5,433 bases of DNA, from IMG/VR virus record IMGVR_UViG_2671180846_000002; one strand, written 5' to 3'. Positions within the stretch are counted from its first letter, which is position 1. Each line of letters begins with the position of its first letter. The notes under the pieces were generated by a model, which had not been told where the DNA came from, did not search any database, and was given only the letters and a program-made list of their open reading frames with translations. This document shows positions 1,947 through 5,433 of the stretch, piece after piece. The translations under genes and the position numbers were made by a program. This stretch comes from a virus. Taxonomy: Duplodnaviria > Heunggongvirae > Uroviricota > Caudoviricetes.

Positions 1947-1966
<20 letters not shown>

Positions 1967-3079
1967 TCTCCCGCATATTGCCAGCATGGCTTTTAATGAG
2001 CCGCTGATGCTTGAACCCGCCTATGCGCGGGTTTTCTTTTGTGCGCTTGCAGGCCAGCTTGGGATCAGCCGCCTGACGGATGCAGTATCCGGCGACAGCC
2101 TGACTGCCGGAGAGGCACCCGCGGCGCTGGCGTTATCCGGTGATGATGACGGACCACGACAGGCCCGGAGTTATCAGGTCATGAACGGCATCGCCGTGCT
2201 GCCGGTGTCCGGTACGCTGGTCAGCCGGACGCGGGCGCTGCAGCCGTATTCGGGGATGACCGGTTACAACGGCATTATCGCCCGTCTGCAACAGGCTGCC
2301 AGCGACCCGATGGTGGACGGCATTCTGCTCGATATGGACACACCGGGCGGAATGGTGGCGGGAGCATTTGACTGTGCTGACATCATCGCCCGTGTGCGTG
2401 ACATAAAACCGGTATGGGCGCTGGCCAACGACATGAACTGCAGTGCAGGTCAGCTGCTTGCNNNNNNNNNNNNNNNNNNNNNNNNNNNNNNNNNNNNNNN
2501 NNNNNNNNNNNGATGTTTGCGCAGAAGGTGTCGGCATATACCGGCCTGTCCGTGCAGGCTGTGCTGGATACCGAGGCTGCAGTGTACAGCGGTCAGGAGG
2601 CCATTGATGCCGGACTGGCTGATGAACTTGTCAACAGCACCGATGCGATCACCGTTATGCGTGATGCACTGGATGCACGTAAATCCCGTCTCTCAGGAGG
2701 GCGAATGACCAAAGAGACTCAATCAACAACTGTTTCAGCCACTGCTTCGCAGGCTGACGTTACTGNNNNNNNNNNNNNNNNNNNNNNNNNNNNNNNNNNN
2801 NNNNNNNNNNNNNNNGCGGTTGCGGCAGAAAACAGCCGCATTATGGGGATCCTCAACTGTGAGGAGGCTCACGGACGCGAAGAACAGGCCCGCGTGCTGG
2901 CAGAAACCCCCGGTATGACCGTGGAAACGGCCCGCCGCATTCTGGCCGCAGCACCACAGAGTGCACAGGCGCGCAGTGATACTGCGCTGGATCGTCTGAT
3001 GCAGGGGGCACCGGCACCGCTGGCTGCAGGTAACCCGGCATCTGATGCCGTTAACGATTTGCTGAACACACCAGTGTAA
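1947..3079 (+). CDS. C: Prohead protease / minor capsid protein gpC (S49/ClpP-like serine peptidase), interrupted by two N gaps
   Basis: GTG start at 1947 preceded by GAGGAGG (1934-1940), overlapping the B 3' end by 20 nt as in lambda. Reads (V/M)TAELRNLPHIASMAFNEPLMLEPAYARVFF...NDMNCSAGQLLA up to the gap at 2462-2511, resumes MFAQKVSAYTGLSVQ...ASQADVT, second gap 2766-2815, then AVAAENSRIMGILNCEEAHGREEQARVLAETPGMTVETARRILAAAPQSAQARSDTALDRLMQGAPAPLAAGNPASDAVNDLLNTPV and stop TAA 3077-3079. The apparent frame changes from 0 to 2 across gap 1, so the Ns do not preserve true length. Confidence 0.85.
2462..2511. other. N-run (50 nt), sequence gap inside C
   Basis: 50 consecutive N. About 72 codons of C, including the Nu3 start, are expected here from the lambda C length; the reading frame differs on the two sides. 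Confidence 0.95.
2512..3079 (+). CDS. Nu3: Scaffolding protein gpNu3, nested in-frame in the 3' part of C; start codon falls inside the N gap
   Basis: In lambda, Nu3 is translated from an internal in-frame start in C and shares its stop. The visible sequence begins at MFAQKVSA directly after the gap; the expected Nu3 start (about 6 codons upstream by my recollection) is masked. Shares the C stop at 3077-3079. Confidence 0.6.
2766..2815. other. N-run (50 nt), sequence gap inside C/Nu3
   Basis: 50 consecutive N between ...ASQADVT and AVAAENS...; about 24 codons are expected from lambda. Confidence 0.95.
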
Positions 3080-3088
3080 GGGATGTTT

Positions 3089-3240
3089 ATGACGAGCAAA
3101 GAAACCTTTACCCATTACCAGCCGCTGGGCAACAGTGACCCGGCTCATACCGCAACCGCGCCCGGCGGATTGAGTGCGAAAGCGNNNNNNNNNNNNNNNN
3201 NNNNNNNNNNNNNNNNNNNNNNNNNNNNNNNNNNNNNNNN
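3089..3240 (+). CDS. D: Head decoration protein gpD, N-terminal 32 codons visible; remainder and stop lie in the N-run
   Basis: ATG at 3089 with AAGGGA Shine-Dalgarno (3078-3083). Product [32 protein letters not shown] matches the lambda gpD N-terminus. Lambda gpD is about 110 aa, so roughly 78 codons plus the stop are represented by only 56 Ns (3185-3240). The sequence after the gap is D-E intergenic. Confidence 0.8.
3185..3240. other. N-run (56 nt), sequence gap covering most of D and its stop
   Basis: 56 consecutive N. D codons 33 to about 110 plus the stop (about 235 nt expected) are replaced. Confidence 0.95.
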
Positions 3241-3253
3241 ACCCTTCATCACT

Positions 3254-3279
3254 AAAGGCCGCCTGTGCGGCTTTTTTTA
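3254..3279 (+). terminator. Intrinsic-terminator-like hairpin in the D-E intergenic region
   Basis: AAAG-GCCGC-ctgt-GCGGC followed by TTTTTTT (3272-3278): a 5-bp GC stem (3258-3262 with 3267-3271) and 4-nt loop, extendable by A:U and G:U pairs with the flanking A and T tracts. Lies 13 nt before a second T-run and the E start. Confidence 0.5.
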
Positions 3280-3291
3280 CGGGATTTTTTT

Positions 3292-4955
3292 ATGTCGATG
3301 TACACAACCGCCCAGCTGCTGGCGGCAAATGAGCAGAAATTTAAGTTTGATCCGCTGTTTCTGCGTCTCTTTTTCCGTGAGAGCTATCCCTTCACCACGG
3401 AGAAAGTCTATCTCTCACAAATTCCGGGACTGGTAAACATGGCGCTGTACGTTTCGCCGATTGTTTCCGGTGAGGTTATCCGCTCCCGTGGCGGCTCCAC
3501 CTCTGAATTTACGCCGGGATATGTCAAACCCAAGCATGAAGTGAATCCGCAGATGACCCTGCGTCGCCTGCCGGATGAAGATCCACAGAATCTGGCGGAC
3601 CCGGCTTACCGCCGCCGTCGCATCATCCTGCAGAACATGCGAGACGAAGAGCTGGCCATTGCTCAGGTCGAAGAGATGCAGGCAGTTTCTGCCGTGCTTA
3701 AGGGCAAATACACCATGACCGGTGANNNNNNNNNNNNNNNNNNNNNNNNNNNNNNNNNNNNNNNNNNNNNNNNNNCCGGCTTACCGCCGCCGTCGCATCA
3801 TCATGCAGAACATGCGTGACGAAGAGCTGGCCATTGCTCAGGTCGAAGAGATGCAGGCAGTTTCTGCCGTGCTCAAGGGCAAATACACCATGACCGGTGA
3901 AGCCTTCGATCCGGTTGAGGTGGATATGGGCCGCAGTGCGGCGAACAACATCACGCAGTCCGGCGGCACGGAGTGGAGCAAGCGTGACAAGTCCACGTAT
4001 GACCCGACCGACGATATCGAAGCCTACGCGCTGAACGCCAGCGGCGTGGTGAATATCATCGTGTTTGATCCGAAAGGATGGGCGCTGTTCCGTTCCTTCA
4101 AAGCCGTCAGGGATAAGCTGGATACCCGTCGCGGCTCTCATTCCGAGCTGGAGACAGCGGTAAAAGACCTGGGCAAAGCGGTGTCTTATAAGGGAATGTA
4201 TGGCGATGTGGCCATCGTCGTGTATTCCGGACAGTACGTGGAAAACGGCGTCAAAAAGAACTTCCTGCCGGACAACACGATGGTGCTGGGGAACACTCAG
4301 GCACGCGGTCTGCGTACCTATGGCTGTATTCAGGATGCGGACGCACAGCGCGAAGGCATTAACGCCTCTGCCCGTTACCCGAAAAACTGGGTGACNNNNN
4401 NNNNNNNNNNNNNNNNNNNNNNNNNNNNNNNNNNNNNNNNNNNNNCGTGACAAGTCCACGTATGACCCGACCGACGATATCGAAGCCTACGCGCTGAACG
4501 CCAGCGGTGTGGTGAATATCATCGTGTTTGATCCGAAAGGCTGGGCGCTGTTCCGTTCCTTCAAAGCCGTCAAGGAGAAGCTGGATACCCGTCGCGGCTC
4601 TCATTCCGAGCTGGAGACAGCGGTAAAAGACCTGGGCGAAGCGGTGTCCTATAAGGGGATGTATGGCGATACGGCGATCGTCGTGTATTCCGGACAGTAC
4701 GTGGAAAACGACGTCAAAAAGAACTTCCTTCCGGACAACACGATGGTGCTGGGGAACACTCAGGCACGCGGTCTGCGCACCTATGGCTGCATTCAGGATG
4801 CGGACGCACAGCGCGAAGGTATTAACGCCTCTGCCCGCTACCCGAAAAACTGGGTGACCACCGGCGATCCGGCGCGTGAGTTCACCATGATTCAGTCAGC
4901 ACCGCTGATGCTGCTGGCTGACCCTGATGCGTTCGTGTCCGTACAACTGGCGTAA
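3292..4955 (+). CDS. E: Major capsid protein gpE (HK97-fold), present as three overlapping fragments separated by N gaps
   Basis: Fragment 1 (3292-3725) reads MSMYTTAQLLAANEQKFKFDPLFLRLFFRESYPFTTEKVYLSQIPGLVNMALYVSPIVSGEV...KGKYTMTG. Fragment 2 (3776-4395) reads PAYRRRRIIMQNM...ARYPKNWV. Fragment 3 (4446-4955) reads RDKSTYDPTDD...TTGDPAREFTMIQSAPLMLLADPDAFVSVQLA with stop TAA 4953-4955. Collapsing the 125-nt and 413-nt overlaps gives 1026 nt, i.e. 341 codons plus stop, exactly the length of lambda gpE. Confidence 0.88.
3601..3900 (+). repeat. Overlapping near-identical copies of an E segment flanking an N gap (125 nt each)
   Basis: 3601-3725 and 3776-3900 align without indels and differ at 3 of 125 positions (CTG/ATG giving L/M, CGA/CGT and CTT/CTC synonymous). 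The copy offset is 175, which equals overlap plus the 50 Ns. Confidence 0.9.
3726..3775. other. N-run (50 nt) between overlapping E fragments 1 and 2
   Basis: 50 consecutive N. Flanking sequences overlap by 125 nt, so this is a negative (overlap) gap. Confidence 0.95.
3983..4858 (+). repeat. Overlapping near-identical copies of an E segment flanking an N gap (413 nt each)
   Basis: 3983-4395 and 4446-4858 align without indels and differ at 16 of 413 positions (about 96% identity), giving 5 amino-acid changes (R/K, D/E, K/E, V/T, G/D). The copy offset is 463, which equals overlap plus the 50 Ns. Confidence 0.9.
4396..4445. other. N-run (50 nt) between overlapping E fragments 2 and 3
   Basis: 50 consecutive N. 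Flanking sequences overlap by 413 nt, so this is a negative (overlap) gap. Confidence 0.95.
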
Positions 4956-4957
4956 TC

Positions 4958-4980
4958 ATGGCCCTTCGGGGCCATTTTCT
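4958..4980 (+). terminator. Stable UUCG-tetraloop hairpin immediately downstream of the E stop (E-FI intergenic)
   Basis: ATGGCCC-ttcg-GGGCCAT (4958-4975): a perfect 7-bp stem with a TTCG loop, followed by the T-rich tract TTTCTCTCT. Begins 3 nt after the E stop codon. Confidence 0.5.
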
Positions 4981-4996
4981 CTCTGTGGAGGAGTCC

Positions 4997-5392
4997 ATGA
5001 CGAAAGATGAACTGATTGCCCGTCTTCAGGTGCTGGGTGAGCAACTGAACCGTGATGTCAGCCTGACGGGGACGAAAGAAGAACTGGCACTCCGTGTGGC
5101 AGAGCTGGAAGAGGAGCTTGATGACACGGATGACGCTGCCGGTCAGGACACATCTGTCAGCCCGGAAAATGCGCTGACCGGACATGAAAATGAGGTTGTA
5201 TCAGCGCAGCCGGATACCGTGACTGATACGGCTGATCTGGTCACGGTTGTGGCACTGGTGACGCTGCATACTGATGCACTTCACGCCACGCGGGATGAGG
5301 CTGTGGCATTTGTGCTGCCGGGAACGGCGTTCCGTGTCTCTGCCGGTGTGGCAGCTGAAATGACAGAGCGCGGCCTGGCCAGAATGCAATAA
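4997..5392 (+). CDS. FI: DNA packaging / head assembly accessory protein gpFI
   Basis: ATG at 4997 preceded by GGAGGA (4987-4992). Product MTKDELIARLQVLGEQLNRDVSLTGTKEELALRVAELEEELDDTDDAAGQD...VAFVLPGTAFRVSAGVAAEMTERGLARMQ resembles lambda gpFI, with a conserved N-terminal helix and C-terminal domain and a variable acidic linker. Stop TAA 5390-5392. The track ORF from 4958 is an upstream in-frame extension. Confidence 0.82.
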   Translation: MTKDELIARLQVLGEQLNRDVSLTGTKEELALRVAELEEELDDTDDAAGQDTSVSPENALTGHENEVVSAQPDTVTDTADLVTVVALVTLHTDALHATRDEAVAFVLPGTAFRVSAGVAAEMTERGLARMQ

Positions 5393-5403
5393 CGGGAGGC
5401 GCT

Positions 5404-5433
5404 GTGGCTGATTTCGATAACCTGTTCGATGCT
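5404..5433 (+). CDS. FII: Head-tail connector gpFII, first 10 codons (3' end outside the window)
   Basis: GTG at 5404 preceded by GGGAGG (5394-5399). Translation (M)ADFDNLFDA matches the lambda gpFII N-terminus as I recall it. Position immediately after FI. Confidence 0.65.
   Translation, partial: MADFDNLFDA

Follow-up and report, generated by a model that had tools for sequence, protein, structure and literature searches.

Overlapping tiles of the major capsid gene E in a lambda-like viral record are an assembly artefact, not a biological feature

Introduction

The closest described systems to the locus studied here are the multi-copy lambdoid prophages of EHEC strains, as they appear in short-read draft genomes. 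The locus shares with such drafts contigs of 254–988 nt, contig ends located at the branch points of a graph with a single k, adjacent arms having k-1 bases in common, two-copy stretches collapsed into one sequence and variant-dense stretches that are missing. There is no difference in kind between the two; what is unusual here is that parallel arms were kept and written serially with N spacers. O26:H11 chromosomes carry a Stx1a phage together with other lambda-like prophages that recombine, and Stx1a phage sequences from O26:H11 draft genomes could be obtained only with long PCR or long reads (PMC10042803).

The DNA analysed is a stretch of 5,433 nt from the IMG/VR record IMGVR_UViG_2671180846_000002, referred to below, as a whole, as the window. 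It is a lambda-type head module whose DNA shares 98–99% identity with lambda-like E. coli phages, Stx1a-converting phages among them. It has the gene order and gene lengths of the lambda module W-B-C/Nu3-D-E-FI-FII and an E of 341 aa that matches Phage_cap_E from end to end. In contrast to lambda gpE, the E of the window is not one gene: it consists of pieces of two alleles that are 29 nt and 8 aa apart. We report here that the overlapping tiling of E is an assembly/scaffolding artefact and not a biological feature.

Results

Genes of the window

Gene limits follow the RefSeq annotation of one of the E. coli prophages described below (L006), projected onto the window. All genes lie on the + strand. 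The window opens with the end of terminase A (to 165), followed by W (162–368), portal B (365–1966), the C/Nu3 S49 peptidase (1947–3079, with its stop at 3079), D (from 3089, with only the first 96 nt in the window), the major capsid gene E (3292–4955, with its stop at 4955), FI (4997–5392) and FII (from 5404). The complete E alleles matching the tiles scored 240.6 and 234.7 bits against the Pfam profile PF03864 Phage_cap_E (cut-off 22.9), over profile positions 1–328 of 329. The first E tile by itself covers profile positions 1–132.

Two hairpins were observed on either side of E. The GC-rich hairpin ATGGCCCTTCGGGGCCAT at 4958–4975, just past the E stop, was the sole terminator-like site reported by our scan, a count (n = 1) not above that of shuffled sequence. 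A second GC-rich hairpin, ggccgcctgtgcggc, followed by a T run in the D-E spacer (3255–3281), was missed by the scan and read by eye.

Five N runs and the distances they stand for

The window is interrupted by five N runs, of which four are 50 N long (2462–2511, 2766–2815, 3726–3775 and 4396–4445) and one is 56 N long (3185–3240). They delimit six fragments, f1 to f6, all on the + strand. Fragment f1 (1–2461) carries the end of terminase A, W, portal B and the 5′ part of C/Nu3. Fragment f2 (2512–2765) lies inside C/Nu3 and f3 (2816–3184) carries the 3′ end of this gene and the 96 nt of D. Fragment f4 (3241–3725) comprises the D-E intergenic region and E nt 1–434, f5 (3776–4395) comprises E nt 310–929, and f6 (4446–5433) comprises E nt 517–1026, FI and the start of FII.

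To obtain the true distances between fragments, these were mapped on the intact phage LC645429. The relations behind the spacers are, in order from f1 to f6, +216, +71, +241, -125 and -413 nt. The spacer at 2462–2511 thus hides a gap of 216 nt (in L001 coordinates, f1 ends at 3961 and f2 starts at 4178), that at 2766–2815 a gap of 71 nt, and the 56-N run at 3185–3240 a gap of 241 nt that takes in the remainder of D. The spacers at 3726–3775 and 4396–4445 were set between contigs which overlap, by 125 nt (f4/f5) and 413 nt (f5/f6), respectively. Since one spacer of 50–56 N serves for all five relations, its length carries no size information.

In an alignment of the three copies of the module found in E. 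coli strain 2014C-3057 (see below), 3.3% of sites were variable. The three true gaps have variant sites at their bounds and are dense in variants within, with invariant blocks of at most 83 nt. This maximum is reached in the 216-nt gap behind 2462–2511, which contains 10 variant sites. Variant density within the module is highest in the missing stretches, which comprise parts of C/Nu3 and all of D beyond nt 96.

E is written as three overlapping tiles

Overlap 1 is formed by 3601–3725 (E nt 310–434) and 3776–3900, two segments of 125 nt on the + strand with 3 mismatches (97.60% identity). Overlap 2 is formed by 3983–4395 (E nt 517–929) and 4446–4858, two segments of 413 nt, also on the + strand, with 16 mismatches (96.13% identity). 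Repeats this long and this identical cannot arise by chance. In both cases the first copy ends right before an N run and the second copy starts at the first base after it, which leaves no room for extending the repeat to the left. The copy offsets are 175 (125 + 50) and 463 (413 + 50). At the protein level overlap 1 contains a single amino-acid difference, M113L, and overlap 2 contains five, R215K, D216E, K237E, V248T and G261D.

As written, the frame of E is shifted at both junctions, as 175 and 463 each leave a remainder of 1 modulo 3, and the gene appears as three ORFs. An uninterrupted E ORF of about 341 codons is absent from the window as written and appears only upon manual collapse, in which case it is chimeric. 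Removal of either copy of each overlap together with the spacer gave 1026 nt, that is 341 codons with a single terminal stop. The collapsed E, whichever copies are kept, matches no real allele: the nearest O26 allele is at least 6 nt and 2 aa off. The initial annotation had described repeated E segments flanking both N runs with offsets equal to overlap plus 50 N, an E of 341 codons after collapse, and a sequence probably chimeric between prophage alleles. Alignment showed the first two to be exact, and the failure of either collapse to reproduce a real allele bears out the third.

The tiles match prophages located megabases apart

A search with the individual fragments found the module in at least one place in 3217 of 5,426 complete E. 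coli genomes. Complete O26-type chromosomes contain up to 5 E places each; three of their five or six copies were located here, the search giving the best place per record. Perfect fragment matches fell mostly in O26:H11 and related non-O157 EHEC strains, and we infer that the source strain was an E. coli of this type. At least six complete genomes carry 100% matches to both f5 and f6, and in one strain, 2014C-3057 (NZ_CP027387.1), every fragment found a 100% match.

The distribution of these matches within the 2014C-3057 chromosome is specific to each fragment. Fragment f1 matches at 100% only the prophage at 4.92 Mb (L005), compared with 99.47% for the prophage at 4.69 Mb (L006) and 97.9% for that at 0.53 Mb (L007). 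L005 and L006 both match f2 and f3 at 100%, and these two fragments represent a collapsed two-copy allele. Fragment f5 is 100% identical only to L006 and to L004, with 6 mismatches to L005 and 22 to L007. Finally, L007 and L003 are the only copies that match f4 and f6 at 100%. The same partition was found in O26:H11 strain 11368, where f4 and f6 match at 100% a prophage at 0.64 Mb, f2, f3 and f5 match at 100% a prophage at 2.19 Mb, and f1 is one mismatch away from a third prophage at 2.55 Mb.

The fragments therefore originate from three prophages, as seen directly in these matches. The first and third E tiles (f4 and f6) come from one prophage and the middle tile (f5) from another, megabases away; these two, L007 and L006, carry the E alleles differing by 29 nt and 8 aa. 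The earlier proposal of several lambdoid prophages with different E alleles is thus upheld, f4 and f6 being found only at 0.53 Mb and f5 only at 4.69 Mb in 2014C-3057. Judging from the sequence matches, the contributing prophages number at least three, not two. E is intact and 1026 nt long in all of the prophages described here, including the three of 2014C-3057.

The L005 and L006 E genes encode an identical protein (WP_000063258.1) and differ by 10 synonymous nt. Across u5534–5663, the L006 allele follows L005 and L007 by turns, a mosaic that suggests recombination between prophages.

Prophages of the L007/L003 type in complete O26 genomes carry an IS66-family element (ISCro1-like tnpA/tnpB/transposase) in the C gene, at 2881–5583 in L003 and 5713–8415 in L007. 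The insertion is flanked by an 8-bp target duplication which corresponds to window positions 2401–2408. Fragment f1 is uninterrupted at 2401–2408 because it comes from another copy. The prophage supplying f4 and f6 is probably defective.

Relation to Stx1a-converting phages

Among phages, the best whole-window matches were the Stx1a-converting phages of O26:H11 (LC645428–LC645437), with 98.6–98.9% identity. For LC645429, identity was 99.88% with f1 and 100% with f2 and f3, and only 95.6% with f6. No stx genes were annotated between the antiterminator and lysis genes in the f1-matching prophage of 2014C-3057 (L088, 4931000–4946000). Since f6 reaches only 95.6% and no stx is annotated in this prophage, the window cannot be called a Stx phage. 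In the phage database, f1 is matched best by Stx1a-converting phages, despite the existence of this 100%-matching prophage in which no stx is annotated in that interval. An origin of f1 in a Stx1a prophage is not claimed, as the 100%-matching prophage in 2014C-3057 is without annotated stx.

Fragment ends are branch points of a k = 63 graph

We compared the ten internal fragment ends with the three-copy alignment. Six of the ten adjoin a site variable among the three copies (binomial P ~3e-7), including both ends of f2. The remaining four are located exactly 62 nt from a variant site. A de Bruijn graph was then built from L005, L006 and L007 alone, with k scanned over odd values from 15 to 127 plus 62 and 64. 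All ten internal fragment ends coincided with unitig ends only at k = 63, as compared with two to seven of the ten at every other k tested; unitig ends make up ~1.5% of positions. The distance of four ends from variant sites is accounted for by the k-1 = 62 offset.

Two other explanations of the end positions were considered and rejected. Variants in unseen extra copies could have explained the four ends off variant sites; these positions, however, vary little or not at all among 80 IMG/VR lambda-like loci. Values of k of 21, 27 and 28, derived from the nearest tile-versus-tile mismatch distances, were mutually inconsistent. They failed because the relevant variants are those relative to L005, which are not visible in the window at the sites concerned.

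The geometry of the individual ends and overlaps agrees with k = 63. The right end of f1 is the last L005-unique 63-mer. Overlap 1 has a length of 125 nt, which is 2k-1 at k = 63, and is centred on the SNP site u5534, where L005 differs: f4 ends with the last 63-mer covering u5534, and the first of these 63-mers opens f5. Overlap 2 corresponds exactly to the 413-nt k = 63 unitig u5679–6091, which L005 and L006 have in common; the L007 unitig with which f6 begins runs alongside it. No 63-mer was present in more than one of the six fragments, and exact identity between any two of them extends over at most 62 nt (k-1), a length reached between f5 and the first 62 nt of f6.

In f2 to f5, three to five strict unitigs are chained per fragment (three in f2), so that the assembler also resolved simple bubbles. 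The path taken in f2 and f3 is the arm carried by two copies. That taken in f4 is the minority arm in the three-copy model, and on this model it would imply further copies or read threading.

The ends on either side of the 56-N run at 3185–3240 are both exact k = 63 unitig ends, so that the extra 6 N hide no contig bases. On the L007 path, a k = 63 unitig also stops at the right end of the window (5433, u6666), so that f6 may run to the true end of its contig. Position 1, on the left, does not coincide with a unitig end; the window is thus cut inside a longer contig there.

Break positions are therefore graph branch points and not the variant bases themselves. The earlier suggestion that contigs broke at variants holds with this precision, with six of the ten ends adjoining a variant site, the other four at 62 nt and all of them k = 63 unitig ends.

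In many other draft viral contigs of IMG/VR carrying E (L009, L010, L013, L017, L021, L022, L024, L026, L027, L070 and L082), the contig end lies no more than a few hundred bases from the gene. In L070, L082 and L009, for instance, 23–148 nt separate the E start from a contig end. Breaks in this head module thus seem to be frequent in assemblies.

Discussion

Origin of the three-piece E

We consider it highly probable (about 0.93) that the three-piece E represents k = 63 de Bruijn contigs of several lambda-like prophages, ordered on a reference and joined with N. The source genome would carry several lambda-like prophages whose head modules are 95–99.5% identical. A de Bruijn assembler running at k = 63 would fail to thread these copies and would yield short contigs ending at branch points, some copy-specific (f1, f4, f5 and f6) and others collapsed from two copies (f2 and f3). 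Graph pieces of the variant-densest stretches, which are absent from the window, would have been dropped or placed elsewhere. The surviving contigs would then have been sorted by their position on one lambda-like reference, with arbitrary N spacers set between them. Parallel graph arms from prophages that lie hundreds of kb to Mb apart in complete chromosomes would in this way be written in series and mimic overlapping E tiles. Several observations count against the model: one spacer has 56 N instead of 50 N, three copies were located against 5 E places in O26 genomes, the fragments chain several strict unitigs, and f4 takes the minority arm of the three-copy graph.

The concatenation of contigs with spacers, already proposed in the initial annotation, finds support in an N length that is fixed across +216, +71, +241, -125 and -413 nt. 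The ordering step itself was probably carried out on a reference, and all fragments lie on one strand, sorted by reference start. Paired-end or mate-pair scaffolding through the repeat graph, with negative or unknown gaps written as a minimum of 50 N, is an unlikely alternative for this step, even though some scaffolders do write a fixed minimum gap and the 56-N run could be a size estimate and not a constant. As f4 and f6 lie 82 nt apart in one prophage, read pairs should have linked these two instead of inserting f5, of another prophage, between them. Moreover, 50–56 N stand in for each of the true gaps (216, 71 and 241 nt), so that sizes were not estimated, and the order strictly follows the reference start coordinate.

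With the same assembly and spacer history, the alleles could also come from different cells, as would be the case if the culture was mixed, the library contaminated, the phage lysate heterogeneous or the sequence drawn from a metagenome bin. Sequence alone cannot separate copies in one genome from copies in several. Such a mixture is nevertheless unnecessary and quite improbable, as all alleles co-occur at 100% in single closed chromosomes, 3217 of the 5,426 complete E. coli genomes have at least one place for the module (4–5 in O26-type genomes) and three copies of one chromosome are sufficient to reproduce ten of ten fragment ends.

We regard as very improbable a source prophage in which E is truly part-duplicated or was freshly rearranged by recombination between co-resident prophages, with N runs masking the junctions, or, in a milder form, a mosaic of the middle allele that reflects ongoing capsid-gene conversion. 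No match to the end of f5, 50 nt and the start of f6 in succession was found in viral, species-representative and metagenome collections, in a search that matches N to N. Two real partial tandem duplications of E in a decaying prophage, with the N runs as short unsequenced stretches, are hardly credible: the literal layout of the window alone supports them and defective prophages are common, e.g. the L007 type with its C gene split by the IS66-family element, but both junctions fall exactly on N runs, the copies are 2.4–3.9% apart and each finds its 100% match in an intact E at another chromosomal locus, the fragment ends follow the k = 63 graph geometry, and each of 87 lambda-like loci has a single copy of either overlap segment.

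Consequences for the use of the record

The value of the finding is that of a data-quality warning only. The window mixes at least three prophages, without most of D and parts of C, and hides the true copy number. Annotators would label E as written a pseudogene. The approach provides a reusable test for this type of artefact, in which a small graph is built from the copies present in a related closed genome and fragment ends are checked against its branch points. An E protein, a capsid phylogeny, a prophage count or a phage typing derived from this record would be wrong.
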